DNA of 55,146 bases from an uncultured Eubacteriales bacterium (GTDB lineage: Bacteria > Bacillota > Clostridia > Christensenellales > Pumilibacteraceae). The notes below the pieces were generated by a model. It was not told where the DNA came from and did not search any database. It was given only the letters and a program-made list of their open reading frames with translations. Both the position numbers and the translations under genes were made by a program. The DNA is taken from assembly GCA_902783025.1 (NCBI GenBank), contig CACZPH010000048.1:1-55146 (forward strand), given 5' to 3'. Of the stretch, positions 2,082-48,234 are shown one piece after another; position 1 is the first letter of the stretch; every line of letters starts with the position of its first letter.

Positions 2082-3069
2082 CTTTGTTTCCGTCGTACTT
2101 TTCCGGCGGCGGGTTTTCGGTCGTTTCTTTATTGTTCGTTTCTTTTTCCGCTTCTTCGAAAATATCCGTTTTCCGTTCGTTTTCCGCTCTTCTCGCGCTG
2201 GCTTGAGCCTCATAGTACGCGGCGTAATCGAAAGGCTTTCTTTCCGTTCTCAAAACGCCGTTTATTCCCTTTTCTTTCAGTTCGGGATTATCTTCGATAA
2301 TTTTTTCGTCTTTAAGCGTTTCTTCGTAAAAAACTCTGAGTATTCCGGCGTACACGGCTTCGCAATAGAACGTGAACAACGCTCTCAATATTTCCGCAAA
2401 AACTCCCCCGATAAGAGGAACGATTCCGATTATCGCCGACGCGATCCCCAAACCAAAAGAAAACAATAAAACCCATAAATAGAAGACTATCGACTGTAAA
2501 AACAATCTTTCTTTTCTTCCTTTCATGAGCCTTTGGCTTTCTCTTATGCATTCGATACATTTTTTATTCGGATCGTCGTTCTTGATCGAAAAACACAACG
2601 AGTACGAATACGCTTTAACGATACCCGGTATCAGCAAAAGCAGCGACCACAAAAATACTTTTACCGCATAAAGAAGATACAGCTTAAAATACGAAAAAAC
2701 TTTGCCGTACTCTTCTTTTATGACGATTTCTTTGTTTCCTATCACGTTTTTTGCCGCTCCGTACGCGGGCATTACCAAAACGATCCCCGCAACGTAACAC
2801 ACAACGCCGACCGCCGCGTTTATCATGATTTCCGGAAAATATTTTTCTATTATTTTATAATACTCGCTCATAAAGTCGTTTGCGGCGAAACTCTCTATGA
2901 CTTTACCGAGAAGATCGTTTACTTCTCCGTTAAATCCGCGTAATAAAAATATCGATATTATCGCCGACACGAAAAACGGCACGACAAATATAAAAGCAAA
3001 CGCAGGAACGCGTTTGTTTTTTACGGTTTTCAAAAAGGATTTTTTGTAAGTTTCTCCGTATCTTAACAT
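2074..3069 (-). CDS. DUF975-like multi-pass membrane protein with acidic/lysine-rich C-terminal tail
   Basis: Several hydrophobic helices. The start was moved to ATG 3067-3069, which has AGGAG 7 nt upstream. The gene overlaps the mnmE start by 8 nt. Confidence 0.6.
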   Translation of the reverse strand: MLRYGETYKKSFLKTVKNKRVPAFAFIFVVPFFVSAIISIFLLRGFNGEVNDLLGKVIESFAANDFMSEYYKIIEKYFPEIMINAAVGVVCYVAGIVLVMPAYGAAKNVIGNKEIVIKEEYGKVFSYFKLYLLYAVKVFLWSLLLLIPGIVKAYSYSLCFSIKNDDPNKKCIECIRESQRLMKGRKERLFLQSIVFYLWVLLFSFGLGIASAIIGIVPLIGGVFAEILRALFTFYCEAVYAGILRVFYEETLKDEKIIEDNPELKEKGINGVLRTERKPFDYAAYYEAQASARRAENERKTDIFEEAEKETNNKETTENPPPEKYDGNKDE

Positions 3070-3136
3070 AAATAACTCCTTATTTAATAATAATATCATA
3101 AGGGAAAATTAAAGTCAAACGCTTTTTTGTGAGAAT

Positions 3137-3174
3137 AAGTTATCCACGGTGTGAATTAAAAACGTGGATAACTT
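3137..3174. promoter_or_regulatory. Inverted pair of DnaA-box-like sites
   Basis: Perfect 12-bp inverted repeat AAGTTATCCACG (3137-3148) / CGTGGATAACTT (3163-3174). Each arm contains TTATCCACg, an 8/9 match to TTATCCACA. Weaker TTATTCACT boxes lie at 3232-3240 and 3359-3367. Confidence 0.55.
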
Positions 3175-3434
3175 TCCGCTTTTATTTCGACTTTTTTTTA
3201 TTTGATCCGGCTTTTCTTTTTTTATTCACTCTTTCGCTTTCCTAAGTCACGCTTCAATCATCTTCGATCAATGTTTTTGCTTTAATAACTTTTGTGGTTT
3301 TTCTTTCGGTCTTTTTGTTTTTTACACAACATATTGTAGTTTTTTAAAAAAATTTCAGTTATTCACTTTTTCACTTCCCTAATAATAACCGTAATAATAA
3401 AAATTTAAAATAACTAACTCAATCTACGGGAAAG

Positions 3435-3464
3435 TTGACAAGAGCGAGGCGTTTGATTTATAAT
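3435..3464 (+). promoter_or_regulatory. Sigma-A type promoter for rsmG
   Basis: TTGACA (3435-3440), 18-nt spacer, TATAAT (3459-3464). The ATG at 3471 lies 6 nt after the -10 box. Confidence 0.6.
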
Positions 3465-3470
3465 GTGGAT

Positions 3471-4139
3471 ATGTCAGAATATATAACACAATTTTATCCC
3501 GAATACGAAGAGTTTTTCGAAAAGTATAAAAATCTTCTTAAGGAATGGAACGAAAAAATCAACCTTACGGCTATTACCGACGATAACGAAATTTACGAAA
3601 AACACTTTAAGGATTCGCTTCTTGGAGAAAAATTCATAAGCAAGGGCGCGTCGGTTCTGGATATAGGAACGGGCGCGGGTTTTCCTTCTCTTCCCATTAA
3701 GATAGTGAGAGAAGATATAACTCTTACTCTCAACGACAGTCTTAACAAAAGACTTATTTTTCTTAACGAGGTAATAAAAGAACTGAAATTAACGAAAGTA
3801 CGCACTATTCATTCCAGAGCCGAAGATCTCGATAAAAAAGAAAAATACGATTACGTGCTCTCTCGTGCGGTCGCTAAACTTAACACACTCGCGGAATATT
3901 GTCTTCCTTTCGTAAAAGAGGGCGGATATTTTATCGCTTACAAATCCAAAGATACCGACGAAGAAATAAAAGAAGCCGAAAAAGCAATAAAGATATTGGG
4001 CGGAAAAATAGAAAAAACAGAGGAAATACCGTTAAACAACGAAACGGTCAGAAGACTTATTTTTATTAAAAAAATAAAGGAATGCGAAAAAAAATATCCG
4101 CGCGGAAAAAATTTACCGAAAACGAAACCTATTATGTAA
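3471..4139 (+). CDS. rsmG: 16S rRNA (guanine527-N7)-methyltransferase RsmG (GidB)
   Basis: LLKEWNEKINLTAIT, the SAM motif VLDIGTGAGFPSLPIKI and the C-terminal RRLIFIKK are typical. The start is ambiguous: ATG 3471 with no SD (possibly leaderless) or TTG 3435. Confidence 0.88.
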   Translation: MSEYITQFYPEYEEFFEKYKNLLKEWNEKINLTAITDDNEIYEKHFKDSLLGEKFISKGASVLDIGTGAGFPSLPIKIVREDITLTLNDSLNKRLIFLNEVIKELKLTKVRTIHSRAEDLDKKEKYDYVLSRAVAKLNTLAEYCLPFVKEGGYFIAYKSKDTDEEIKEAEKAIKILGGKIEKTEEIPLNNETVRRLIFIKKIKECEKKYPRGKNLPKTKPIM

Positions 4140-4165
4140 AAAGACGGCGAGAGCCGTCTTTTTTT
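4138..4165. terminator. Bidirectional terminator between rsmG and the ABC ATPase gene
   Basis: AAAAAGACGGC / GAGA loop / GCCGTCTTTTT. Confidence 0.75.
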
Positions 4166-4172
4166 GCCGAAT

Positions 4173-5015
4173 TTAAGAAAGTAACATTTTATCGGATAAT
4201 TCTATCGAGGAATTTTCGAACTTTTCGAGAAGATCCTTTACGGTGAGATTTTTCTTTTCTTCGCCCTTAACGTCGTAAACTATCCTGCCTTCGTTCATCA
4301 TAATAAGTCTGTTGCCGTGTTTGATGGCGTCCGACATATTGTGAGTTATCATAAGAGTAGTAAGGTTGTTTTCTTCGACTATCTTATCGGTAAGAGACAG
4401 GACTTTTTTAGCCGTTTTCGGATCGAGAGCCGCGGTATGTTCGTCGAGAAGAAGCAATTTCGGCTTATTGAGAGTCGCCATTATAAGAGTTATGGCTTGT
4501 CTTTGACCGCCCGAAAGAAGTCCGACCTTTGCCGAGAGTCTGTTTTCGAGTCCGAGATCGAAGTAAGCGAGCTGCTCGCGGAAAAGTTCTCTGTCTTTCT
4601 TGGTAAGTCCCCACTTAAGTCCGCGAGGCTTTCCCCTACGGTACGCTATGGCGAGATTTTCCTCTATCATCATATTGGAAGCGGTACCGAGCAAAGGATC
4701 CTGAAAAACGCGCCCCAAATACTTCGCTCTCTTATATTCGCTTCGTTTGGTTACGTCCACGCCGCCGATGATTATTTTTCCGCCGTCGGGCTTAAATACT
4801 CCCGCGATAGCGTTGAGCATAGTGGATTTGCCCGCTCCGTTGCCGCCTATTACCGTGACGAATTCTCCGTCCCTGATAGTAAGGGAAAGATCGGAAAGAG
4901 CGATCTTTTCGTTGATGGTGCCGGGATTAAAAACCTTGGTAACGCCGTCGAGAACGAGCGCGGCCGCGTCCCGCGAAACTTCCGCGGAGGAAACGATATC
5001 GTTTATATCACTCAT
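4173..5015 (-). CDS. ABC transporter ATP-binding protein (COG1101 type, TrpZ-like)
   Basis: Walker A GGNGAGKST, signature LSGGQRQ, Walker B LLLLDEHTAALD. Overlaps the permease stop by 8 nt. Confidence 0.88.
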   Translation of the reverse strand: MSDINDIVSSAEVSRDAAALVLDGVTKVFNPGTINEKIALSDLSLTIRDGEFVTVIGGNGAGKSTMLNAIAGVFKPDGGKIIIGGVDVTKRSEYKRAKYLGRVFQDPLLGTASNMMIEENLAIAYRRGKPRGLKWGLTKKDRELFREQLAYFDLGLENRLSAKVGLLSGGQRQAITLIMATLNKPKLLLLDEHTAALDPKTAKKVLSLTDKIVEENNLTTLMITHNMSDAIKHGNRLIMMNEGRIVYDVKGEEKKNLTVKDLLEKFENSSIELSDKMLLS

Positions 5016-5979: not shown

Positions 5980-6984
5980 TTATTGTATGGGTTGATAAGA
6001 AGAAGGAACGGTTATACCCGCTTTTTCGCAAAGTTCGGGATTGTAGACGTAAACGGGGTTTTCGTCGGCGGCTACCGCCATTGTGGAAATGTCGGCTTTG
6101 CCGAGAAGGACCTGAGCCGCCATTTTGCCGGTCTTGACGCCGATATTGTAGTAGCTTATCGACAGCGCCGCTATTCCGCAGCCTCTGCAAATACCTTCCT
6201 CGCCCGCGATTATCGGAACGACTTTGCCCGAAGAGGGATAGCAGATGTTGCGTATGATCTCGGTATTGCTCGCCGCCGCGTTGTCGGTAGGAACGTAAAG
6301 CGCGTCGCAAGCGTTGTACGCGCTCGTAACCACCGTCGCTATGTCGTTGGAATCCGAGAACGAGTACAGCGAAACGTTCTTGCCTTTTTGTTCCAAAAAT
6401 TTCTTGACTTGCTTTATCTGATAGTCGGAGTTAGGCTCCGCCGAGCAGTAAATAAGACCTATTTTGTCAGCCGACGGAACGAGCGAAGTTATCATTTCGG
6501 CTTGTTTGTCAAGAGGAGCGAGGTCGCTCGTGCCCGAAACGTTGCCGCCCACCACGCCGTTGTAGTTTTTCAGCGAAAGAGCCACGCCGTATTCGGTGAT
6601 CGAGGTACCCAAAACCGGAATGGTCTCGGTCGCGTTGTACGCTGCCTGAAGCGCCGCGGTCGCGTTAGCCATAATAAGGTCAACGTCCGAAGACACGAAA
6701 CTGTTGACGATAGTCGAGCAGATAGCCGAGTCGCCCTGTGCGTTTTGCTCCCTGAATTCCACGGTCCTGCCCGCCGCCGAAAGTTCCTCGGCAAGCGAAT
6801 CCCTGAATCCCTGCGTAGCCGCGTCGAGCGCGGGATGCTGAACGAGCTGGCAAATGCCGACCACGTATTTTTCCTTGTCGGGGTTTACCTTGATCTTCTT
6901 CGTCGCGGGAGCGCAACCGACCGCGAAAGCGCCTATCACGAGAGCGCACGCGGCGGCAAACACCGATCTTAACGTCTTTTTCAT
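5980..6984 (-). CDS. ABC transporter substrate-binding lipoprotein (COG2984 type)
   Basis: Signal peptide with lipobox (LVIGAFAVGC). The periplasmic-binding-fold sequence is typical of the uncharacterised Trp/Tyr-linked ABC family. AAGGAG RBS present. Confidence 0.8.
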   Translation of the reverse strand: MKKTLRSVFAAACALVIGAFAVGCAPATKKIKVNPDKEKYVVGICQLVQHPALDAATQGFRDSLAEELSAAGRTVEFREQNAQGDSAICSTIVNSFVSSDVDLIMANATAALQAAYNATETIPVLGTSITEYGVALSLKNYNGVVGGNVSGTSDLAPLDKQAEMITSLVPSADKIGLIYCSAEPNSDYQIKQVKKFLEQKGKNVSLYSFSDSNDIATVVTSAYNACDALYVPTDNAAASNTEIIRNICYPSSGKVVPIIAGEEGICRGCGIAALSISYYNIGVKTGKMAAQVLLGKADISTMAVAADENPVYVYNPELCEKAGITVPSSYQPIQ

Positions 6985-7009
6985 AATTTTTCTCCTTGTC
7001 TTAAAATAA

Positions 7010-7036
7010 AAGACTTACCGTTCTACGATAAGTCTT
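7010..7036 (-). terminator. Leader terminator (attenuator) upstream of the ABC operon
   Basis: The minus-strand RNA AAGACUUAUCG-UAGAA-CGGUAAGUCUU forms an 11-bp stem with one G-U pair. It is followed by UUUAUUUU and sits 12 nt before the AAGGAG RBS of the binding-protein gene. Confidence 0.6.
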
Positions 7037-7070
7037 CGTTTACTTTTTTAACGCGAAATTACCGTAGTTT

Positions 7071-16577: not shown

Positions 16578-17459
16578 TCAGTCATCGTATGTTTTTTCTA
16601 TTCTTTCGAGTATATCGACGATTCGATCGAGATCGTCGCGCGTATAATAGTCGATATAGATCCTGCCCTTATGGTCGTTGCCTATCGCGGAAACCTTGGT
16701 GGCGAAAGCTCTTTGGAGACGATGAACCATATCCACAAGCTCCAAACTCTGAGCTTTTTTGTCTTTCTTTTCTTTAGGCGGGTTAAGATAGTTTTTGACG
16801 AGTTTTTCGAAATCGCGTACGCTGAGTTGATCTTTTACGCATTTATCGGCAAGATTTCCTTGCGCTACTTCGTCGCTTACGACTACCAAACAGCGCGCAT
16901 GACCGGAAGAAAGCTTTCCCGCGGAAACAAGAGACATTACGTATGGCGAAAGAGTCAACAAACGAAGCGTGTTTGCAACGGCGGGACGGCTCTTGCCTAT
17001 GCGGTCGGCGACTTCTTCCTGAGTATACTTATACTCGTCCATGAGTTGTTTTATCGCGTTGGCAGTTTCGATCGGGTTAAGATCTTCGCGCTGTAGGTTT
17101 TCGATAAGAGAAATCTCTTTGACTTGCTTGGGCGTATAGTTGCGGATTATCGCGGGCATGGTAAGAAGACCGGCTTTCTTTGCGGCGCGGTAACGTCTTT
17201 CGCCCGCTATTATCATATATCCGCCGTCTTGTTCCACCACGATAATGGGAGCGATAACGCCGTGTATACGAATACTGTTAGCCAGTTCGTTAAGAGCAAC
17301 TTCGTCGAAATTCTTTCGCGGCTGATTTACGTTAGGGAAAATTTTCGTAATGGGGAGTTCTTTGGTCGCCGCGGCGGAGTTTTCTTCCTCGAGTCTATTT
17401 TCGTATTCTTCGGACGAGTCGGAAAATAAAGCGCTCAAACCTTTGCCTAAACCTTTCAT
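16578..17459 (-). CDS. parB: Chromosome partitioning protein ParB/Spo0J
   Basis: MKGLGKGLSALF N-terminus, the ParB-box/CTP motif IIAGERRYRAAKKAG, and the HTH EVADRIGKSRPAVANTLRLL. Confidence 0.9.
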   Translation of the reverse strand: MKGLGKGLSALFSDSSEEYENRLEEENSAAATKELPITKIFPNVNQPRKNFDEVALNELANSIRIHGVIAPIIVVEQDGGYMIIAGERRYRAAKKAGLLTMPAIIRNYTPKQVKEISLIENLQREDLNPIETANAIKQLMDEYKYTQEEVADRIGKSRPAVANTLRLLTLSPYVMSLVSAGKLSSGHARCLVVVSDEVAQGNLADKCVKDQLSVRDFEKLVKNYLNPPKEKKDKKAQSLELVDMVHRLQRAFATKVSAIGNDHKGRIYIDYYTRDDLDRIVDILERIEKTYDD

Positions 17460-25229: not shown

Positions 25230-26003
25230 ATGCCTATACTTGTCAAAGCAAAAATCGAAAACCGCGACAGACTGAGCGTTTATCCTTTCTTTTCTAAACT
25301 GTTCCGCGACGGTTTTACGGTGGAATTCGATCCCATAACGATCATCGCCGGCGAAAACGGCGTGGGAAAATCGACTTTTCTCGAGTCTCTTGCCCATTCG
25401 ATAGGCTTTTCGTCGTTTGGCGGAGGCATAAATCACACGACGATCTTGGGCGGCGTGAATTATGCCATAGTACACGGCAACAACCCATGGGAAACGCTAA
25501 AGGAGTCGGCGGAAGAGGACGACGATCTGATTTCGCAGATCGACGATTGCACGCTCTCCGATTATATGAAACTATCCTGGCAATACAAAACGAAAAAAGG
25601 CTGGTTTGTCCGCGCCGAGACATTTGCCGCGCTCGTCAGCATAGGGCTTAAGGATTTTTACGCGGGAGATAGGAGCCACGGCGAAGGGATCGTCGACGTT
25701 TTAAACGGGATAGAGCAAGAGGGGATATATATTCTCGACGAACCCGAGTCGGGTTTGTCCCCGAGCAAAATGATGCATATGATGCTCATTATTTCCCAAA
25801 AACAGAAACAATACGGCGCGCAGTTTATTATTTCCACGCACAACCCTATGCTTATGAGTATTCCGGGCGCGAAATTACTGTATATGACGACGGACGAAAT
25901 AAAACGGGTTGCGCCGGAGGAAACGCCGCACTTTCAGTTGACTAAGTATTTTTTGAATAATCCGGAAGGCTTCATAAACAAACTTTTTTCGGACGACGAG
26001 TGA
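25230..26003 (+). CDS. AAA/ABC-like ATPase (COG3910-type predicted ATPase)
   Basis: Walker A GENGVGKST and Walker B IYILDEPESGLSP. The start lies 3 nt after the HAD stop. Confidence 0.7.
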   Translation: MPILVKAKIENRDRLSVYPFFSKLFRDGFTVEFDPITIIAGENGVGKSTFLESLAHSIGFSSFGGGINHTTILGGVNYAIVHGNNPWETLKESAEEDDDLISQIDDCTLSDYMKLSWQYKTKKGWFVRAETFAALVSIGLKDFYAGDRSHGEGIVDVLNGIEQEGIYILDEPESGLSPSKMMHMMLIISQKQKQYGAQFIISTHNPMLMSIPGAKLLYMTTDEIKRVAPEETPHFQLTKYFLNNPEGFINKLFSDDE

Positions 26004-26069: not shown

Positions 26070-26098
26070 TTGACAAAATATTTTGCGTGTGGTACTAT
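26070..26098 (+). promoter_or_regulatory. Promoter of tRNA-Ser
   Basis: TTGACA (26070-26075), 17-nt spacer, TGgTACTAT (26090-26098). Confidence 0.6.
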
Positions 26099-26123: not shown

Positions 26124-26218
26124 GGAGAAATACCCAAGAGGCTATAAGGGGACCCCCTGCTAAGGGGTTAGTACGGGCTTTACCTGTAGCGCGAGTTCGA
26201 ATCTCGCTTTCTCCGCCA
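26124..26218 (+). tRNA. tRNA-Ser (anticodon GCU), class II with long variable arm, CCA encoded
   Basis: Hand-folded. Acceptor GGAGAAA/TTTCTCC. Anticodon stem ACCCC/GGGGT with loop CTGCTAA. Variable arm TACGGG-CTTTA-CCTGTA. T arm GCGAG-TTCGAAT-CTCGC, then GCCA. Confidence 0.9.
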
Positions 26219-26260
26219 CGAAAAGGGCAATCGCTTGATTGCCCTTTTTCCGTGGGGAGA
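26211..26260 (+). repeat. Left copy of the 50-bp perfect direct repeat (att-like)
   Basis: CTCCGCCACGAAAAGGGCAATCGCTTGATTGCCCTTTTTCCGTGGGGAGA is identical to 30902-30951. It includes the last 8 nt of tRNA-Ser. Confidence 0.9.
26221..26249 (+). terminator. tRNA-Ser terminator (inside the direct repeat)
   Basis: AAGGGCAATC / GCTT loop / GATTGCCCTT followed by TTT. Confidence 0.75.
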
Positions 26261-26303
26261 AAGCGAGAAGGAGAACTTTGACTTTATACAGATTTTGGCT
26301 TTC

Positions 26304-26359
26304 GGCGGGTGCTTGACCGCGGAGCAAAGCGACGCGCTTGTATTAGTCAAGCACCCGCC
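26304..26359. repeat. 14-bp perfect inverted repeat, GC-rich
   Basis: GGCGGGTGCTTGAC (26304-26317) / GTCAAGCACCCGCC (26346-26359) with a 28-nt spacer. It lies just inside the left island border. Confidence 0.7.
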
Positions 26360-26403
26360 ATAGTGCCATTTGTAAATTTTTTGTTAATATGATAAAGATT
26401 TGC

Positions 26404-26437
26404 TTGCTATTATTCGTGATTTAGAATATAATATTCT
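26404..26437 (+). promoter_or_regulatory. Island operon promoter with an overlapping 15-bp palindrome (candidate operator)
   Basis: TTGCTA (26404-26409), 17-nt spacer, TATAAT (26427-26432). The perfect palindrome AGAATATAATATTCT (26423-26437) covers the -10 box. Confidence 0.55.
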
Positions 26438-26459
26438 TATAAAAATTCGAGGTGATATT

Positions 26460-27527
26460 ATGTTGAGTTTTATGTCCGCGAAAGAAGCCGCTGAAAAATG
26501 GGATATCTCTCAAAGAAGAGTTGCAATACTGTGTTCCGAAAATCGTATTGACGGAGCGATGATGGTCGGAAATATGTGGATCATCCCGTCTACTGCCGAA
26601 AAACCGATTGATAAAAGAACTGTTCGTTATGAAAAGGCAAGAAAGGTTACACTTAAGCCATTTGTAAAATGGGTAGGTGGTAAAAGTCAACTTGTTGAAC
26701 AGATAGAAAAAATGTTACCGTCTGACGGGGAAAAAGTTTTGACTAAATATGCAGAACCCATGATAGGTGGCGGTGCGCTTTTCTTCACTATTCTCTCAAA
26801 ATATGATTTTGAAGAGCTTTATATAAGCGACATAAACCCCGAATTGATAAACGCATATCAAGCTATAAAAAGCGACGTAGATAGTTTAATTGAAAAACTT
26901 AATGAAATGCAAATGACTTTTTTGCCTATGGATGAAAACGGCAGAAAGTATTTCTATTATAGTGTGCGCGAAAAGTTTAATTCCACCGTTTTATCGGCGG
27001 AGACTGCTACCGAAAAAGCCGCACAATTTGTTTTCTTGAATAAAACTTGTTTCAATGGCTTATATCGTGTAAATAGAAAAGGTCAATTTAACGTTCCTAT
27101 GGGTGCATACAAAAACCCGACTATTTGTGATAATGAAAATTTACGCAACATTCACGAAGCGTTGCAAAACGTAACAATAGTTTGCGGTGATTATTCGCTT
27201 TCGAAATCGTTCATAGATAAAGATACTTTCGTATATCTTGATCCCCCTTATCGTCCTATTTCCGAAACATCTGCATTTACTTCATATAATTCGGAATCTT
27301 TTGATGATAACGAGCAGATACGACTTGCACAGTTTATTGATGAAATCAACAAGTTGGGAGCAAAGATTGTTTTAAGCAATTCCGATCCGAAAAATGTAAA
27401 CGAAGAAGATAACTTCTTTGATGATTTATATAAAAACTATAAAATAAATCGTGTTGAAGCAACTCGAGCAATAAACAGCAAAGGCGATAAACGCGGAAAA
27501 ATAAATGAATTGCTTATCTGCAACTAA
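26460..27527 (+). CDS. Dam-like (DpnM-type, GATC) N6-adenine DNA methyltransferase with N-terminal HTH extension
   Basis: KPFVKWVGGKSQL, AEPMIGGGALFF and the catalytic YLDPPY are Dam-type motifs. About 60 extra N-terminal residues (SAKEAAEKWDISQRRVAILCSENRIDGAMMVGNMWIIP) resemble an excisionase/MerR-type HTH. Confidence 0.85.
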   Translation: MLSFMSAKEAAEKWDISQRRVAILCSENRIDGAMMVGNMWIIPSTAEKPIDKRTVRYEKARKVTLKPFVKWVGGKSQLVEQIEKMLPSDGEKVLTKYAEPMIGGGALFFTILSKYDFEELYISDINPELINAYQAIKSDVDSLIEKLNEMQMTFLPMDENGRKYFYYSVREKFNSTVLSAETATEKAAQFVFLNKTCFNGLYRVNRKGQFNVPMGAYKNPTICDNENLRNIHEALQNVTIVCGDYSLSKSFIDKDTFVYLDPPYRPISETSAFTSYNSESFDDNEQIRLAQFIDEINKLGAKIVLSNSDPKNVNEEDNFFDDLYKNYKINRVEATRAINSKGDKRGKINELLICN

Positions 27528-27540
27528 AGGAGTATTTTTT

Positions 27541-28416
27541 ATGAGAGGAAAAACCATAAATTTTTTTCTAATTGACGGAGAGCCTACAAAGAGAATAAAA
27601 TGTACTCTTCAAAATTGGACGGGTATTGTTTATAAAATTCCACGAGCAATGTTAGATAACTGCAAGGACGGAACGAGTGATATTGTTCGCCATCTTAAAC
27701 AGACAGGTATTTATTTCCTGCTCGGAGAAGATTCTGAAAGCGGCGAGAAGATGATCTATATTGGACAAGCCGTTGTTAGAAAAAACGGAGAAGGTTTATT
27801 ATGTCGCATTCAAGAACATAAACGTAACAATAAGGAAAAATATTGGAGTGAATGGAATGAGGTTATAGTTCTCACCACGCAGAATAATTCATTTGGACCA
27901 ACTGAAATTAGTTATTTAGAGAATCAGTTCACGTCACTTGCAAAAGAATCTCATCGATATATAGTAAAAAACGGCAATGAACCTAATCAAGGAAACATTA
28001 CCGAAGAGAAAGAAAGCGAGTTATCTGAGTATATTGATTATGCAAAAATGATAATTGGCGTGCTTGGTCACGTGGTATTCGATCCCATTGTAAAAGATAA
28101 AGAAAAAAGGAACGCCGATGAAAATACTGTTGTTTTTACATATAAAGGAAAATTAAAAGCAAATGGCATTATAACAGATGAGGGTTTTGCCCTTTTAAAA
28201 GGTAGCGAACTCAATCCCACAATTAGTAAAAGTGCCCATTCGTTCACAATAAAAGCTCGTAAATCATATGGCAATTTGATTGATGAAAACTATCGGACAA
28301 CTGAAGACATTTTGTTCTCAAGTCCATCTGCCGCAGCCGGGTTTGTTGGCGGTTGCAGTTTAAGCGGTAATGTTATGTGGGTAACTGCAGACGGGAAAAC
28401 ACCAAAAGATTTTTGA
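27541..28416 (+). CDS. GIY-YIG nuclease-like protein with C-terminal DUF4357-like domain
   Basis: GIY (TGIYFLLG), YIG (MIYIGQA), then R/H (CRIQEHKR) and E (ISYLENQF). C-terminus FSSPSAAAGFVGGCSLSGNVMW. AAAGGAG RBS 8 nt upstream of the ATG. Confidence 0.65.
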   Translation: MRGKTINFFLIDGEPTKRIKCTLQNWTGIVYKIPRAMLDNCKDGTSDIVRHLKQTGIYFLLGEDSESGEKMIYIGQAVVRKNGEGLLCRIQEHKRNNKEKYWSEWNEVIVLTTQNNSFGPTEISYLENQFTSLAKESHRYIVKNGNEPNQGNITEEKESELSEYIDYAKMIIGVLGHVVFDPIVKDKEKRNADENTVVFTYKGKLKANGIITDEGFALLKGSELNPTISKSAHSFTIKARKSYGNLIDENYRTTEDILFSSPSAAAGFVGGCSLSGNVMWVTADGKTPKDF

Positions 28417-28427
28417 GGAGAAAACAG

Positions 28428-29288
28428 ATGAAAAGAGATTTTAACAAATGGCTTGATACATTCAAAAGTAGTATTTGCGACTATAAATTTTACGTTGACT
28501 TTGAAAAAGTTTACGGTAAAGTCGATAATATCAAAGTTGAGTTGAATATTCTTAACTCGCTTATCGGTTCAAAAAATATCGAAAGCGATTTCAAAAATCT
28601 TGTGGCGGAATATCCGAAAGTTTTGAAATGCATTCCTATTTTGCTTGCTGTCCGTAGTCGTGAAATATACGCGATCGACAGCGACGGCGAATATTGGTTT
28701 AATTTTGCAAAACATAATTATTCTACCGACGAATACATAATGTTTATGCGTAAAACGGGTTTATTCTCACTTATTTCGGAACACTTGATAAACAATCTCG
28801 TTGATTATGTTACAGGCGTAGAAGTCGGACTTGATAGCAACGGTCGTAAAAATCGCGGCGGTCATTTAATGGAAGATTTAGTAGAATCGTATCTTGTGCA
28901 AGCGGGGCTTCAAAGAAACATTGATTATTTCAAAGAAATGTATCTTTCCGACGTTGAAAAGCAATGGGGTTTGGACTTGTCGAGCATTTCAAATCAAGGT
29001 AAAGCGAAAAAACGTTTTGATTTTGTGGTTAAAAAAGATAAAACCGTTTACGCCGTCGAAGCAAATTTTTATTCGAGTCAAGGTTCAAAACTCAACGAAA
29101 CCGCAAGAAGTTATAAAACTATTGCGTTGGAAGCAAAAGAAATCGACGGCTTTGCATTCGTTTGGTTTACCGACGGTCAAGGATGGAAGTCCGCTCGCCA
29201 TAATCTTGAAGAAACGTTTGACGTTTTGGATAATATGTACTGCATTACCGATATGGAAAACGGTATAGTAAAGGAACTTTTCAAGTAA
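28428..29288 (+). CDS. DpnII/MboI-family type II restriction endonuclease (GATC)
   Basis: Close to my recollection of DpnII: LNSLIGSKNIE, NNLVDYVTGVEVGLDSNGRKNRGG, KRFDFVV, NFYSSQGSKLNETARSYK and WFTDGQGW. GAGGAG RBS present. Confidence 0.85.
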   Translation: MKRDFNKWLDTFKSSICDYKFYVDFEKVYGKVDNIKVELNILNSLIGSKNIESDFKNLVAEYPKVLKCIPILLAVRSREIYAIDSDGEYWFNFAKHNYSTDEYIMFMRKTGLFSLISEHLINNLVDYVTGVEVGLDSNGRKNRGGHLMEDLVESYLVQAGLQRNIDYFKEMYLSDVEKQWGLDLSSISNQGKAKKRFDFVVKKDKTVYAVEANFYSSQGSKLNETARSYKTIALEAKEIDGFAFVWFTDGQGWKSARHNLEETFDVLDNMYCITDMENGIVKELFK

Positions 29289-29289
29289 T

Positions 29290-30033
29290 ATGGCAAAGAA
29301 AAACATACCGTTACAGCCCGAAAATTTCGAACTCGAAACAAATACAGTTTGGGCGTTCCCCGATCGCGGTAAATGGGCTACACACGACGCTAAATATCGC
29401 GGAAATTGGTCGCCGTATATTCCTAGAAACCTAATTCTGCGTTACTCAAATGAGGGCGACACTGTTTTGGATCAGTTCGTCGGTGGCGGCACTACTGCCG
29501 TTGAGGCAAAACTGACAGGCAGAAATTTTATCGGTGTCGATATTAATCCGAATGCTCTTGAAATTACAAAAAGCAAATTGAATTTCGAGTGTGAATTTAA
29601 CCCGACAATAAAAATTGAGCAAGGCGATGCGCGTAATCTTTCGTCTATTGCGGATAATTCGATAGACCTTATTTGCACGCATCCGCCTTATGCCGATATT
29701 ATTCATTACAGCGAAGATATTGACGGCGATATGTCGCTTATGTCGATGAAAGATTTTTTATTCGAAATCGGCAAAGTCGCAGAAGAATGTTATCGGGTAT
29801 TAAAAAAAGATAAGTTTTGCGCTATACTTATGGGAGATACCCGCAAAAAGGGTATGGTTCAACCACTTGCTTTTGAAACGATGCGTATTTTTGAAATGGC
29901 AGGGTTCAAGACGAAAGAGATTATAATCAAAGAACAACACAATTGCAAAGCAACTGGCTATTGGAAAACAAACAGTATAAAGTTTAATTTTCTTTTACTC
30001 GCCCACGAGTATTTGTTTGTGTTTAAAAAATAA
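29290..30033 (+). CDS. Second DNA methyltransferase (N6/N4 MTase-like)
   Basis: SAM motif VLDQFVGGGTTAVEA lies upstream of the catalytic-type motif ICTHPPYADII. The start is 1 nt after the endonuclease stop. Confidence 0.7.
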   Translation: MAKKNIPLQPENFELETNTVWAFPDRGKWATHDAKYRGNWSPYIPRNLILRYSNEGDTVLDQFVGGGTTAVEAKLTGRNFIGVDINPNALEITKSKLNFECEFNPTIKIEQGDARNLSSIADNSIDLICTHPPYADIIHYSEDIDGDMSLMSMKDFLFEIGKVAEECYRVLKKDKFCAILMGDTRKKGMVQPLAFETMRIFEMAGFKTKEIIIKEQHNCKATGYWKTNSIKFNFLLLAHEYLFVFKK

Positions 30034-30045
30034 TTAATAAAGTAT

Positions 30046-30873
30046 ATGAACAATACAACTATTATTTTTTCAGATGAAGCAGGACAGTATTACAAAAAAC
30101 CAAATGACAAACAAATTATATCTGATCCATTTTATGTTCGTTCGGCGGTATATTTAACGACAGAAGAGTATATAGCCTTTCAAAAAGATATTATAACATT
30201 GAAGAAAAAATATAATCTGCCAATTAATGAGGAGATTAAATGGTCAGATATTTACGAGTTGCAAAAGAAACGCTATAGAGCCGATTTCTTAAAAGACTAT
30301 AATATAGATAAATTAAAACAATATATTACTGATTATATATCTATTGCCCACTTGAAACAATCTATAAAATATGTTTTTACAATTTCAGGTAATCGTTATC
30401 AAAACACGGCAGATAAAGAATATATTGTTTTTGCTCATTTGCAAAATATTTATCAGCGAGCACAATTTGACGCAACCGATGAGTCGAACGATTTTTATAT
30501 GGTTATTATTGATGATATGAATGAAACGGCATTAAATAATTTACGCCAAAGATGTTGTGACTTATTACATAATGGAGATAGATTTGTTGATTATTCTAAT
30601 TTAAACCAAAGCCTTTTAGTGGAAAAAAGTGAGCAAAGTGCTGGTATTCAAATAGCCGATTATGCAGCAGGGATTTTTAACTCTGTCGCAAAAAAATATA
30701 TACTTGAAAAAAATTCGTACGATTATGCCAATAGATTGTATTCAATGTATATAGCACCTAAAATAAGAAGAAAAAATAAAAAAATTTTGGGATATGGAAT
30801 AATGAAAATAACAAAAAATATGATAATACCTAACCTGAATGCACTAATCGAAGCAACGGAATCCTATTTATAG
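30046..30873 (+). CDS. DUF3800-like protein
   Basis: N-terminal IIFSDEAGQ (DE-x-G motif) and C-terminal GIQIADYAAG match the DUF3800 pattern as I recall it. This is the last gene of the island operon. Confidence 0.55.
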   Translation: MNNTTIIFSDEAGQYYKKPNDKQIISDPFYVRSAVYLTTEEYIAFQKDIITLKKKYNLPINEEIKWSDIYELQKKRYRADFLKDYNIDKLKQYITDYISIAHLKQSIKYVFTISGNRYQNTADKEYIVFAHLQNIYQRAQFDATDESNDFYMVIIDDMNETALNNLRQRCCDLLHNGDRFVDYSNLNQSLLVEKSEQSAGIQIADYAAGIFNSVAKKYILEKNSYDYANRLYSMYIAPKIRRKNKKILGYGIMKITKNMIIPNLNALIEATESYL

Positions 30874-30901
30874 AAAAATAATTCGATTTGCGTTACTATC
30901 G

Positions 30902-30951
30902 CTCCGCCACGAAAAGGGCAATCGCTTGATTGCCCTTTTTCCGTGGGGAGA
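30902..30951 (+). repeat. Right copy of the 50-bp perfect direct repeat (att-like)
   Basis: Base-for-base identical to 26211-26260. It includes a second copy of the terminator hairpin (30912-30940). Confidence 0.9.
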
Positions 30952-31025
30952 GAGGCTCGATTCTCACCGAACGCTTGCGCGTTCTGTTCCTCGCGCTTCG
31001 GGCATAGCCCTCGCGGGCTTTAGCT

Positions 31026-31051
31026 AAAAACAGTCCACCGGACTGTTTTTT
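31026..31051 (+). terminator. Hairpin terminator
   Basis: AAAAACAGTCC / short loop / GGACTGTTTTT. Confidence 0.6.
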
Positions 31052-31061
31052 ACGCATCGCC

Positions 31062-31077
31062 CTCGCTTTCCCCGCCA
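31062..31077 (+). repeat. Third, degenerate copy of the tRNA-Ser 3' end
   Basis: CTCGCTTTCCCCGCCA versus tRNA 26203-26218 CTCGCTTTCTCCGCCA (15/16). A hairpin terminator follows within 6 nt, as in the tRNA gene itself. Confidence 0.5.
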
Positions 31078-31082
31078 AGAGC

Positions 31083-31120
31083 AACCTAAATCGAACCCGT
31101 AAAGTTCGGTTTAGGTTTTT
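31083..31120 (+). terminator. Strong hairpin terminator
   Basis: 14-bp stem AACCTAAATCGAAC / GTTCGGTTTAGGTT (one G-U pair) followed by a T-run. Confidence 0.65.
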
Positions 31121-31297
31121 CTTTTGCAAAAATCCCGTGTTTTCCTACGTTTTTCGGCTGTCTTTCTTGTCCGGCGGCGTTCAAAAGGTGTTCGTACAGC
31201 AGTGTTCGTGGATCATTATAAAAGTCAGAGTGCGCTTTAAGTCAAGCGAAAAAACAAAAAAAATCCGCCGCCCGGCAACGGAGCGACGGGTTTTTGT

Positions 31298-45961: not shown

Positions 45962-46005
45962 ATAAACAACCCCCGTCTCGGAATAACCGCGGCGGGGTTT
46001 TGCCA

Positions 46006-46035
46006 TTGACAAAGACAAGACTAAAGTGGTACAAT
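46006..46035 (+). promoter_or_regulatory. Promoter at the left edge of the AT-rich islet (extended -10)
   Basis: TTGACA (46006-46011), 18-nt spacer, TGgTACAAT (46027-46035). Confidence 0.6.
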
Positions 46036-46101
46036 ATACCTACAACGCTGGGGGCAGAGTAACTACTACCGTACTGTCATCTTGAATTATAAGAGGAATA
46101 A

Positions 46102-46218
46102 ATGGATAAAAAACAGAAAAAGAAGATAGCAACCGAACTCTTTTTAAGTATGCTGGCTACTGCAATCGTGACTACGCTTTCCGTGGTTATTTTGCTTCTA
46201 AGCGTTTTGGGGAGATAG
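46102..46218 (+). CDS. 38-aa single-TM peptide (MDKKQKKKIATELFLSMLATAIVTTLSVVILLLSVLGR)
   Basis: This ORF is not in the supplied track. AAGAGGA RBS lies 4 nt upstream. Its stop codon sits 1 nt before the next ATG. Confidence 0.45.
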   Translation: MDKKQKKKIATELFLSMLATAIVTTLSVVILLLSVLGR

Positions 46219-46219
46219 T

Positions 46220-46453
46220 ATGGAAACGTATAGCAAAAAGGGTCTGTTGATTTTTCTTATAACTTTTTTTACGATGGCGGTAAATCTGGCTTTTGCAATA
46301 AAATGTTATACCAAAGTTTCTTCCGCTTTTTATCTCGCCGTTCTAATCGTTAACATCTTAGCTCTTGTTTTAAATGTGGCTTTATTTGCTGTTTATTTTG
46401 TCAAATTGCGTACGCTCTCCCCCAAAGAAAGAGACGGCAATAATAAAGAATAA
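46220..46453 (+). CDS. 77-aa two-TM membrane protein
   Basis: A GGGGAG RBS lies within the end of the upstream ORF. Two hydrophobic helices and a charged tail. Confidence 0.55.
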   Translation: METYSKKGLLIFLITFFTMAVNLAFAIKCYTKVSSAFYLAVLIVNILALVLNVALFAVYFVKLRTLSPKERDGNNKE

Positions 46454-46505
46454 AACGGAAAGCACCGAGACGCCTTTGGAAAGAAATTTGGAGGGAACTT
46501 TTTAA

Positions 46506-47084
46506 ATGATTTTAAGTAAATATATCTTGGCGGCAGAAAAAAAGGCTTTCTCGGAACCGGAAGTAATCTCTTTTCAAGTAGATGATTGGAAAATATTAGA
46601 GAAGTTTTCTTATCGTATTAAAGAAAAAAAACATTTTACCGATGTTTGGGAGGATATTTTAGACCAGCTAAATGATTTTACGGTTAATCAAAAAACTGAC
46701 GTTAATTTATTCTTAACGCCAAAAACTTTAGATAATCTTATACAGGAAAACGTGTTATTAAGTACGCTGTCCCACATGGATTTACCTACAAAATATCTTA
46801 TCAAAATTTATGAAAAAAACAATAAGAATTTCGAAGGTTTAATTACTGTTTATTTGCGATATATAGAAAATCATGATACGGAGAATTTGCTTGCATTATC
46901 AAAGACGCATCACAACAATTTCGTTATGGCATATGTTTGCTTAAAAATCGGAAATGAATGTAAAGAAGTTAAAATCCTATATGATAGTATAACTGACGAA
47001 AAGTATAAAAAACTCATAAAGAAGGCAAAAACGCAGTCAAACGATACGGAACGATACTTTATTGAATTATTTTCGCTAAAATAA
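46506..47084 (+). CDS. Hypothetical 192-aa soluble protein (orphan)
   Basis: GGAGGGA RBS upstream. Lys/Asn/Ile-rich composition typical of AT-rich accessory DNA. Confidence 0.6.
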   Translation: MILSKYILAAEKKAFSEPEVISFQVDDWKILEKFSYRIKEKKHFTDVWEDILDQLNDFTVNQKTDVNLFLTPKTLDNLIQENVLLSTLSHMDLPTKYLIKIYEKNNKNFEGLITVYLRYIENHDTENLLALSKTHHNNFVMAYVCLKIGNECKEVKILYDSITDEKYKKLIKKAKTQSNDTERYFIELFSLK

Positions 47085-47089
47085 AAATG

Positions 47090-47133
47090 TGTCAACCCCC
47101 GCTCCTATTTTCGGAGTGGGGTGGCTGTTGACA
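47090..47133. repeat. Composite hairpin, copy 1 of a repeated hairpin motif
   Basis: Outer stem TGTCAAC/GTTGACA and inner stem CCCCGCTCC/GGAGTGGGG. The 19-mer CCCGCTCCTATTTTCGGAG (47098-47116) recurs at 48235-48253. Confidence 0.65.
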
Positions 47134-47243
47134 AAGGCAATCAGGAGTAGACTTTGAAGAAATGCGCAACAAAGCTTGGTATGTTCTTAAAAAAATAATT
47201 TGGTGGATAACAAGGAACAACTAAACAGGACGTCGATATACGA

Positions 47244-47507
47244 ATGGAATTATTGAAACTATTATTAGAGAGCTGGATGATGTTTTTTCTTTCAGATAGC
47301 CGTCGTAATAGTGCCGGCGGTGGAAGTTGGATAAATTTTTTAGTTGTAGCTCTAACGGCTTTTGCGACTCTTGGATTATGGTTTTTGGCATACGAGATAT
47401 TCGAGTTCAAACTTAATTGCCATTATTGGAGAAGCAAAGTTTTCGCGACCATCTTCGTAATAGTAGCGTGGATAGTGTTTATCGCAATCTGCATATTCGT
47501 CGGATAG
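47244..47507 (+). CDS. 87-aa two-TM membrane protein (tentative)
   Basis: Two clear hydrophobic helices, but only a weak RBS. It competes with an antisense ORF (47141-47410) that looks less protein-like. Confidence 0.4.
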   Translation: MELLKLLLESWMMFFLSDSRRNSAGGGSWINFLVVALTAFATLGLWFLAYEIFEFKLNCHYWRSKVFATIFVIVAWIVFIAICIFVG

Positions 47508-47683
47508 CAGTAAAAAAGCTCTGCAGCCAACATTATGAAAACAAACAGTTTAATGACGCATTAAAACAGTGCCATGTTACAGATAAAAATATAGCAAAAA
47601 AAATACACCGCAAAATCACAAAAAGGACTATTCATATTGGGAAATTGTTGAAATAATAAAAAAGTATTTAGGGTTGTTTTAAA

Positions 47684-48193
47684 ATGAAAGAAAAATATAA
47701 AAAAACAATATCTCCTACACACATCGTTCCGACTATTATTGATAATTTTTACGGAGCCGAATTTAGTCTGATACACCGCGCGTGCAATATGGTAATGCTT
47801 ACTTTTACAGCCAAAAACGGTGAAGAATATCAGTTGCACGTTCAGTGTCATTTCAGGATTACTCTTGGCGATAAAGTTTTGCTTGATACCGACGCGCTGT
47901 ATACCAAAAGCACTAAAATACAAAACGAAGAAAACGTGGAATATGACATAATAGGCAATACTCTTTTTGACGAAATAGTGGACAAAAAGTCGGATTTGTT
48001 TTTGGCCGGTAAAGTCGAAGAAATCAGATACGATGAAGGCGATTTACGCCTTGTTTTAAATAGCGGCATCAAGATAGACGTTTTCAAAAACGTTACCGAG
48101 TACGAAAACGAAGTGTACCCTGCGTATCCGCGAGAGAATTATCGGATATTCCGCGTACGCGAAGATTTGGAAGACTCTGATCTTGTAGTTTGA
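47684..48193 (+). CDS. Hypothetical 169-aa soluble protein (orphan)
   Basis: ATG with a weak RBS. Acidic C-terminus. Followed by hairpin copy 2. Confidence 0.55.
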   Translation: MKEKYKKTISPTHIVPTIIDNFYGAEFSLIHRACNMVMLTFTAKNGEEYQLHVQCHFRITLGDKVLLDTDALYTKSTKIQNEENVEYDIIGNTLFDEIVDKKSDLFLAGKVEEIRYDEGDLRLVLNSGIKIDVFKNVTEYENEVYPAYPRENYRIFRVREDLEDSDLVV

Positions 48194-48234
48194 CAGGCTT
48201 TTTTAACAACGAAAACCCGAAAACTTGGCTACCA

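Follow-up and report, generated by a model that had tools for sequence, protein, structure and literature searches.

The window analysed here (55,146 nt, contig CACZPH010000048.1 of an uncultured Eubacteriales bacterium) contains an AT-rich island of 4.7 kb, lying directly 3' of an intact tRNA-Ser(GCU) gene. This tRNA gene (26124..26218, plus strand, as are all the cassette genes and junction features described below) was found by ARAGORN and by Rfam (tRNA, 52.4 bits). Its last 8 nt are CTCCGCCA (26211-26218), and a promoter-like site (TTGACA-17-TACTAT, TG-extended, 26070..26098), presumed from a consensus scan to serve it, lies upstream. From left to right the locus comprises the tRNA, a hairpin, a conserved backbone module, five genes and a 29-nt end that includes 8 nt of the tRNA; then come the hairpin again, a non-coding unit of 110 nt (unit B), 16 nt of the tRNA, another terminator and a convergent gene of 214 aa. 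The GC content of 26360-30901 is 0.349, while the remaining part of the window has 0.494 and the 10-kb flanks have 0.50-0.52; no other 4.5-kb stretch of the contig has so low a value. The composition is clearly below that of contig and flanks, in agreement with an earlier note that had described an AT-rich island from the sequence of this locus. The stretch 26219-26359 is GC-rich (0.525), ends in a hairpin with a perfect stem of 14 bp followed by CACCCGCCA-TAGTGCCATTTG, and is not part of the cargo.

The five open reading frames (ORFs) are intact and none of them codes for an integrase, a transposase or an excisionase according to Pfam, NCBIfam, PADLOC and PHROGs, as already stated in the earlier note. 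The first gene, M1 (26460..27527), codes for a Dam-family N6-adenine DNA methyltransferase with an N-terminal helix-turn-helix (Pfam MethyltransfD12, 2e-66; TIGR00571 dam, 3e-91; PADLOC MTase_II). A promoter-like site (TTGCTA-17-TATAAT, 26404..26432, consensus scan) is found upstream of M1, in a region conserved with the cassette in other hosts. The helix-turn-helix of M1 covers ~60 aa (26460-26640), gives sub-threshold matches to HTH_17 and HTH_59 and is kept in all cassette copies; it may be an autoregulatory domain. The second gene (27505..28416) occupies a variable slot and codes for a DUF4357 protein (Pfam DUF4357), the PADLOC candidate PDC-S14 (2.6e-94). It is followed by a DpnII-family type II restriction endonuclease gene (28377..29288; Pfam DpnII, 1.7e-108; PADLOC REase_II), whose likely start is the ATG at 28428, i.e., a protein of 286 aa (homologues: 286-287 aa). 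M2 (29290..30033) codes for a second DNA methyltransferase, of the N6_N4 family (Pfam N6_N4_Mtase, 1.7e-27; PADLOC MTase_II, 4e-118).

The last cassette gene (30046..30873; Pfam DUF3800) codes for a DUF3800 protein with an RNase H-like fold (AlphaFold2, pLDDT 81.6). Its best Foldseek matches are RNase HIII and HII, with weak E values (~1e-3). DUF3800 proteins have been described as predicted nucleases with an RNase H-like fold, associated with defence or with non-coding RNAs (PMC10910872, PMC13594972), and have been reported as associated with structured RNAs (PMC5737381). A hidden recombinase was also considered for this protein and rejected: the fold is RNase HII/HIII-like, from weak matches only, and there is no match to a DDE transposase or to an integrase. 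The DpnII/MboI-type gene set is complete (DpnII-family endonuclease, Dam-type methylase and N6_N4 methylase). To judge from protein similarity, the cargo is a DpnII/MboI-type restriction-modification system of predicted GATC specificity, plus the PDC-S14 gene and the DUF3800 nuclease. GATC occurs 9 times in 26360-30901 where 14.3 are expected, i.e., a ratio of 0.63 (1.04 in the rest of the contig), but the numbers are small.

A perfect 50-bp direct repeat at the two edges of the island had been noticed earlier, and it is indeed exact over 50 nt (26211-26260 and 30902-30951; 52/53 when extended). Its hairpin core occurs at only these two places in the window (0 expected from shuffles). The first copy is contained in a long hairpin (26202..26268), delimited from inverted repeats, in which the tRNA 3' end and its inverted copy (26252-26267) flank the terminator stem-loop (26221-26248). 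The tRNA 3' end pairs with its own inverted copy across the terminator, and the DNA fold has an energy of −33.9 kcal/mol (z = −8.8). The possibility that this inverted copy is the primer-binding site of a retroelement was rejected: the inverted copies of other hosts match the T-arm, not the CCA end, and form extended terminator stems. The second copy of the repeat (30902..30951) consists of the common core and a second copy of the tRNA-terminator hairpin. Unit B (30952..31061) comes next; it is non-coding and species-specific, has a terminator-like hairpin at its end (31026-31052) and gives no BLAST match in any of ~150 related loci. Then follows a third copy of the tRNA 3' end, CTCGCTTTCCCCGCCA (31062..31077; direct repeat, 15/16), with a different terminator on its 3' side. 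No significant RNA family was found in the non-coding units with Rfam.

Forty-two of the 50 nt of the repeat are the tRNA's own terminator hairpin, and what other hosts share with it is limited to its first 8 nt (CTCCGCCA). The hairpin gave 0 matches in metagenome and viral contigs and is therefore considered species-specific. GC-rich non-coding units of ~150-300 bp, bounded by 16-21-nt copies of tRNA or tmRNA 3' ends, are seen in several hosts: 30910-31077 of the window, and positions 6765-7063, 6797-6943 and 5990-6266 of the related loci L089, L093 and L101, respectively (such loci are numbered with the prefix L). The unit of L089 is absent from its sister locus L098. Downstream of a tRNA-Ser(GGA), L141 (6660-7080, oriented copy) has a tandem array with a period of ~120 bp that contains inverted copies of the tRNA 3' end and the terminator start.

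The same cassette is found in other organisms. Clustering at 90% identity places the DUF3800 protein of the window in a group of 75 members, some of which come from long contigs. The cassette with a DUF3800 at 93-99% identity is present in at least five other host contexts, with a DNA identity to the window of 75-95% (83-95% for L089, L098, L101 and L092-L095). Where its left flank was captured, it adjoins a tRNA-Ser(GCU) in another organism (L089, L098-L100), a tRNA-Ser(UGA) (L101-L103) or a tmRNA (L092-L097). In L107-L116, another context again, AraC/DUF308 genes form the right flank. The gene order M1, variable slot, DpnII, M2, DUF3800 is kept across contexts. The slot is empty in L089, L098 and L093, contains Mrr_cat in L101 and an 80-aa ORF in L111, and contains the PDC-S14 gene in the window's copy only. 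No recombinase family is listed within 10 kb of the cassette copies in other hosts. As judged from these comparisons, the island is a horizontally spread restriction-modification cassette of predicted GATC specificity.

The right junction is site-specific. Homology with every other cassette copy stops exactly at ...TTCGATTTRYGTTAYTANCGCTCCRCCA (...CGCTCCRCCA), beyond which a different host terminator is found in each context. In the window the corresponding right-end motif is ATTCGATTTGCGTTACTATCGCTCCGCCA (30881..30909); it is proposed to contain the P half-site of an attP attachment site and an 8-nt common core (30902-30909). The R of CTCCRCCA is A beside the tmRNA (3' end CTCCACCA) and G beside tRNA-Ser. 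In L101, the tRNA ends in CTTCCGCCA and the element end reads GCTCCGCCA. From these two observations, the exchange would take place within the CC that immediately precedes RCCA. The repeat common to both junctions is only 7-9 nt in most other host contexts (8 nt in L098 and L093). The junctions of L101 share ~84 nt, since the cassette there precedes a truncated copy of an identical unit left end.

Strains of the same species differ at this place. L005 and L006, from two other samples, carry the island and extend across its right junction; their identity to the window is 99.7-99.96%. L007, a scaffold 97.5% identical to the window, contains the left-flank genes, the tRNA-Ser and the hairpin, then 100 N. 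After this gap come the tail of unit B, a complete tRNA end of 16 nt, the hairpin, a further unit B and the third tRNA end, beyond which L007 diverges into other AT-rich DNA encoding the C-terminus of a UvrD-type helicase. L007 appears to have no cassette at this place; its unit B is 95.7% identical to that of the window and is duplicated in tandem, and both of its hairpin copies carry the same strain-specific differences from the window. It would hardly be possible for 4.7 kb to be hidden in the gap of a paired-end scaffold. L002, from the same sample as L007, diverges from the window right after the stop codon of the 214-aa gene, and L001 and L003 stop at 31046. The locus is a strain-variable hotspot. 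The earlier view of a tRNA-targeting island holds in this sense: its DNA was acquired horizontally, is bound to the 3' end of the tRNA and is polymorphic within the species. In this other strain (L007, 2694-3357, and L002, 2072-2609), a different AT-rich island with the UvrD-like helicase C-terminus comes after the third tRNA-end copy, and the 214-aa flank gene adjoins an AraC-family gene.

The earlier note had interpreted the 50-bp repeat as an attL/attR pair, and had named the presence of both copies in an island-free relative as an argument against it. On the L007 scaffold, which has a 100-N gap, this apparently island-free strain already seems to have two copies of the 50-mer region. Because, in addition, other hosts share only 7-9 nt and 42 nt are terminator, the 50-mer is probably not an attachment site, nor an attL/attR pair made by insertion. 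The proposal that the island was gained and lost through the 50-bp repeats is kept in one half: loss by this route is possible, gain is not supported. It was also considered that the unit was inserted with a long target duplication, in the manner of the mobile restriction-modification units of Helicobacter, the 50 bp being single-copy before insertion. The concept is a published one (PMC2853133), the host-type repeat is perfect at both junctions, and similar duplicated terminators are found in L174 (33 nt exact), L141, L237, L192 and L162. Nevertheless, most hosts share 7-9 nt, L007 seems to hold both copies without the cassette, and the long repeats of L101 and L163 are the left ends of adjacent units, so that a long target duplication is very improbable.

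The right end of the cassette was then used as a query on metagenome contigs, which gave at least 120 loci, with three more from IMG/VR. The cassette always closes in the 29-nt motif ATTCGATTTACGTTACTAACGCTCCRCCA. Among the matches listed, to which all counts of loci in this paragraph refer, this motif closes at least 113 distinct combinations of cargo and flank (92 upstream sequences and ~95 downstream flanks). The DpnII cassette is present in only ~10 of the loci; elsewhere the motif is located directly 3' of the stop codons of unrelated AT-rich genes. Its edges are sharp, conservation being at background immediately outside, and five degenerate positions have a preference of 92-98%. Where a tRNA was captured upstream on the same strand, it is tRNA-Ser in 27 loci (GGA 11, GCU 8, UGA 5 and CGA 3) and tRNA-Val in 1; a tmRNA was captured in 4 loci (one context). 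The distance from tRNA to motif is 0.9-8.9 kb.

A palindrome of 11 bp, CGTTACTAACG, is contained in the motif consensus and may serve for the binding of a dimer; the window copy (30890-30900, CGTTACTATCG) has one mismatch. The motif is also carried by the IMG/VR contigs L117, L118 and L119 (40-55 kb, classed as viral), and L118 contains serine-recombinase fragments.

A second conserved feature is the backbone module at the left of the cargo (26301..26372). It is made of a GC-rich hairpin (26304-26317 / 26346-26359, a perfect 14-bp inverted repeat) ending in CACCCGCCA, then TAGTGCCATTTG, where the AT-rich DNA begins. This module is found in 48 other loci at 88-92% identity, including the recombinase-bearing loci L139, L229, L189, L200 and L238. 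By its backbone module and its right end the island belongs to the same family as these loci. Tandem arrays are observed in L163, L201 and L188, and in many cases the right flank is itself the left end of another unit; the long repeats of L101 and L163 are such identical left ends of adjacent units. No single compact non-autonomous form of the left end was found, the distance from junction to module varying from 68 to >1000 nt.

L148 and L203 share with L217 the same tRNA, left module and right flank. Their cargo is different, and the divergence is located exactly between the −10 box and the 29-nt motif. This would fit a resident element remnant at tRNA-Ser that received the restriction-modification genes by homologous recombination, with one crossover in the backbone/promoter module on the left and the other, on the right, in host DNA or in the 29-nt motif; site-specific recombination would then have had no part in the arrival of the island. 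The identity of the module over 48 loci (88-92%) and the variation of the slot between M1 and the endonuclease are consistent with such a cargo swap. On the other hand, the first arrival at different tRNA-Ser isoacceptors and at tmRNA of unrelated hosts, with a junction exactly at CCA, is left unexplained, and 29 nt is at the lower limit for RecA-dependent exchange, which also counts against it. A cargo swap is considered unlikely.

Relatives with a recombinase exist. Large serine recombinases of ~500 aa (Resolvase + Recombinase + Zn_ribbon_recom) are the gene family that recurs most often near the junctions, and are adjoined by a REP_ORF2-G2P protein of 304-332 aa, i.e., a Rep of the HUH type. 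In L139 and L122, the recombinase and Rep genes lie directly after the tRNA-Ser and read towards it; the backbone module, the cargo and the 29-nt motif follow. L184 and L229, for which no tRNA was captured, have the same gene pair. In L132, L179 and L221, other serine recombinases are located immediately to the right of junctions.

A left end of one type (type i), NNNAAACCTAAATCGAAT..., is located directly after the tRNA in L139, L122, L153, L170 and L164. When type-i ends are compared with the mirror image of the right motif, 12-14 of 19 positions agree at the very offset to be expected if the two were symmetrical about the CC of CTCCGCCA, vs. 7.3 +/- 1.4 for the null. A remnant of such an end is present in the window at 31078..31162: a terminator, AACCTAAATCGAAC...GGTTTAGGTT, then TTTTCTTTTGCAAAAAT (terminator-like site at 31083-31117, consensus scan). 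This segment is 75-88% identical to nine loci, including L139, L229, L153, L164 and L178, and its mirror score is 14/19 at offset 0. The window contains both halves of the predicted attP, on different junctions (30881-30909 and 31078-31100). The attP of serine integrases consists of two inverted half-sites about a central dinucleotide. By analogy, the right motif and the type-i left end together look like a serine-integrase attP of ~50 bp, the action of the enzyme being predicted. The hairpin flank of the repeat scores 7/19, both after the tRNA and after the 29-nt motif, i.e., at the level of the null, which speaks again against the 50-mer as an attL/attR signature. The left motif AAGTGCCATTTGAAG was also considered as the P' half-site and was rejected by eye, unscored, as no mirror symmetry with the right motif was seen.

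As the complete relatives encode an HUH Rep, a single-strand insertion by this protein, in the manner of IS91 or IS200/IS605, was weighed. Insertion would take place 3' of CCGCCA, irrespective of the sequence beyond, and the right end would regenerate the target and so give tandem arrays. CCGCCA-like sequences are indeed found both at the right end and immediately ahead of the AAGTGCCATTT motif, left ends start with hairpins and the sequence right of the junctions is unconstrained. This explanation is the least credible of those considered, as no sharp left boundary is seen at CCGCCA/AAG (conservation runs leftwards through the hairpin), and the right motif and the type-i left end, being mirror-symmetrical, are what would be expected of a dimer site on double-stranded DNA. 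Moreover, when a Rep gene adjoins an integrase in a mobilizable element, its usual role is in replication or mobilisation (PMC5704250).

The reading that we favour, with somewhat better than even confidence, is that the island represents a cargo unit, devoid of a recombinase, from a widespread family of integrative elements of gut Clostridia, which are site-specific and insert at the 3' ends of tRNA-Ser genes and occasionally of tmRNA. The window unit is best read as a decayed or trans-dependent cargo unit. As the recombinase is present in relatives and absent from the window, this unit is at most a derivative of a large-serine-recombinase element, not a full member. Complete members consist, from left to right, of the tRNA-Ser, the left end, the large serine recombinase, the HUH Rep, the GC-hairpin module, the promoter, the cargo, the 29-nt right end and the host terminator. 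ATTCGATTTACGTTACTAACG followed by CTCCRCCA, and the type-i left end, are inverted images about the CC of CTCCGCCA. The predicted attP would read ATTCGATTTACGTTACTAACGCTCCGCCA + ATCAAAACCTAAATCGAATACG..., and the tRNA 3' end would provide the left half of attB. In favour of this reading, tandems, remnants and cis-mobilizable elements have been described as common in Oscillospiraceae, and the 3' end of tRNA-Ser as a known site of integration (PMC12084326); the same has been described for Faecalibacterium and other Firmicutes.

In the window, the right junction (30881-30909 and the hairpin) would be an intact junction of attR type, made of the element half-site, the core and the host terminator. 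The junction at 31077 would be the attL-type junction of a second, almost wholly deleted element. On its left side the cassette would have lost the element end, the recombinase and the Rep, and now abut a copy of the host terminator. Three steps would lead to this structure: (i) the species had tandem copies of [tRNA end + hairpin + unit B], as in L007; (ii) an element integrated at one attB-like copy; (iii) a deletion removed the whole stretch between the first unit and a point just upstream of the backbone hairpin, including the left end, the recombinase and the Rep. We infer this order of events, and a serine recombinase as the maker of the junctions, from the arrangement of the ends; this three-step history would be the most economical one.

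Several points weigh against this reading. Neither the serine recombinase nor the Rep of the relatives has a tblastn match in the 55-kb window. The left junction is a host-type flank and not an element-type left end (7/19), so that simple integration cannot give the present structure and one more rearrangement must be postulated. Copies with the same cargo have different left ends in different hosts. The island-free arrangement of L007 spans the 100-N scaffold gap. The terminator is duplicated at both junctions in at least five other host contexts (L174, with 33 nt exact, L141, L237, L192 and L162, as cited above), and this recurrence hints at a systematic process rather than a coincidence. 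Most positions of the 29-nt motif were fixed by the search pattern, i.e., its invariance is partly imposed, and the independent evidence consists of the five degenerate positions and the sharp edges. In L127 (4073-4999, oriented copy), a tyrosine integrase (Phage_integrase with a SAM-like N-terminal domain) and a Rep are found after the junction; therefore more than one type of recombinase uses the hotspot. Finally, serine integrases normally do not take attL or attR as targets, and the tandem arrays that are common here are unexpected for them.

Among the other explanations, that of a non-autonomous cassette mobilised in trans deserves some credit, while being improbable on balance. According to it, the unit (backbone hairpin, cargo and 29-nt end) never had a recombinase at this site; the enzyme of a co-resident element captures such units at tRNA-Ser ends, in the manner of integron cassettes or cis-mobilizable elements, and the recombinase-less form is the normal, functional one. 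Among the matches listed, ~30 of the ~33 loci with a tRNA and the right motif have no recombinase between them, with the reservation that short contigs bias against seeing recombinase genes. The spread of one cassette over at least five host contexts without a recombinase, the frequent tandem arrays (L163, L201, L188), the many right flanks that are left ends of other units, and the different cargoes between the same flanks in L148 and L217 would all fit. Against it, the distance and the sequence between junction and module vary (68 to >1000 nt), which fits independent decay and not one defined form. In addition, the left junction of the window has no element-type half-site, and no circular form or empty/filled pair was observed.

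The favoured reading, i.e., a recombinase-less unit derived from a serine-recombinase element, can be compared with known systems. In the ICESt1 model of cis-mobilizable elements (CIMEs), and with the remnants surveyed in Faecalibacterium (PMC12084326), the common points are the integration hotspot, the adaptive or defence cargo and the tandem arrangement with other remnants. Like a CIME, the window unit is devoid of recombination and transfer genes and shares backbone sequence with complete elements (88-92% identity of the module). It differs in that a CIME has two usable att sites, whereas only the attR-type junction would be intact in the window, the left one being of host type. Moreover, ICESt1 uses a tyrosine integrase, whereas the relatives of the window unit use a serine recombinase and an HUH Rep.

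Bxb1, phiC31 and TP901-1 have serine integrases of the phage type. With such elements the family would share a short common core, of 8 bp in the present case, and inverted half-sites of ~24 nt on either side of a central dinucleotide, and the recombinase gene of the relatives likewise adjoins one att end. The 3' ends of tRNA-Ser and tmRNA as targets and the common arrays, both unusual for these integrases, are differences, as is the absence of a recombinase from the window unit.

The tRNA and tmRNA islands of Islander (PMC4383910) resemble the window in the tRNA 3'-end site, the intact tRNA and a displaced fragment, CTCCGCCA at 30902-30909, that marks the far end. They differ in that the fragment is of 8 nt here and no integrase is present, the definition of Islander using tyrosine integrases. 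The mobile restriction-modification units of Furuta et al. 2010 (PMC2853133) also lack mobility genes and have a long direct repeat of host sequence. In the case of the window unit the length of the repeat does not belong to the unit as such, being 8 nt in most hosts, the ends are conserved and there are recombinase-bearing relatives.

As to the cargo, DpnII, MboI and LlaDCHI form a family of GATC restriction-modification systems. The window resembles them in its Dam-type methylase, DpnII-family endonuclease and second N6_N4 methylase, and differs in the extra helix-turn-helix on M1, the variable slot (PDC-S14) and the attached DUF3800. Integron cassettes are similar in that many cargoes without a recombinase of their own share one recombination-site-like end and occur in arrays. 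They differ from the present units, which have a fixed 29-nt end and not a structured variable attC, no IntI/attI platform, and their own promoters. In kind, the window unit is an already known object, i.e., an element remnant or cis-mobilizable element. The family itself, with its 29-nt end, GC-hairpin module, serine recombinase and HUH Rep, tRNA-Ser targeting and more than 100 cargo variants mostly without a recombinase, looks little described, and a non-exhaustive literature search found no description of a family with this 29-nt end.

The rest of the window was examined for other mobile genes. No integrase is present in its other AT-rich regions, which contain DUF975, gidB, an AraC-family regulator, parB and two ORFs without Pfam match, and no tyrosine integrase was found in the window regions examined. 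Exact-protein look-ups with the two flanking genes gave no match, close variants being reached by homology searches; the names under which homologues of the flanking gene are recorded point to an uncultured Oscillospiraceae/Clostridia bacterium as the host. A scan of contigs from genomes with the 214-aa right-flank protein gave 80 loci, all at ≤65% identity and none with a tRNA-Ser(GCU) adjoining the gene; synteny between species was uninformative. Directly upstream of the tRNA-Ser, 25230-26003 codes for an AAA_21/AbiEii-like ATPase with weak PADLOC matches to ATPases of the AriA, AbiLi and PtuA types. This gene is sparse, with only 13 homologues at E ≤ 1e-40, the best one outside the species being ~52% identical; it may itself be accessory or defence-related. 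A second AT-rich stretch at 46000-48200 (GC ~0.33), with two ORFs without Pfam match (46506-47084 and 47684-48193), may be another small acquired islet. The AT-rich region 2500-4500 contains DUF975 and gidB and no mobile genes. The presence of gidB (rsmG) and parB, at 3435-4139 and 16578-17459, respectively, suggests that the contig lies near the chromosomal replication origin.

A broader interpretation has also been considered. In this interpretation the 29-nt end and the GC-hairpin module would define an undescribed cassette system, in which many defence and accessory units are captured, stacked and exchanged at the 3' ends of tRNA-Ser genes by serine recombinases supplied in trans. We regard it as doubtful. 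If true, it would amount to a serine-recombinase analogue of the integron, with hundreds of units in gut Clostridia, most of them without a recombinase, and a duplicative step copying the tRNA terminator might then explain the recurrent long repeats.

In the favoured reading, an apparently orphan island is explained as a decayed or dependent unit of a family of site-specific elements, and its striking 50-bp repeat is mostly the tRNA's own terminator, not the footprint of a recombination. One 29-nt sequence marks the ends of at least 113 cargo units by tRNA-Ser genes in human and animal gut metagenomes, and some of this cargo is defence-related, e.g., type II methylases and restriction enzymes. 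The motif is a cheap handle to catalogue the mobile accessory genes of uncultured Clostridia. The recombinases of the complete relatives are candidate serine integrases for tRNA-Ser targets, with defined att sites, and could become, if they are active, tools for genome engineering in gut Firmicutes.

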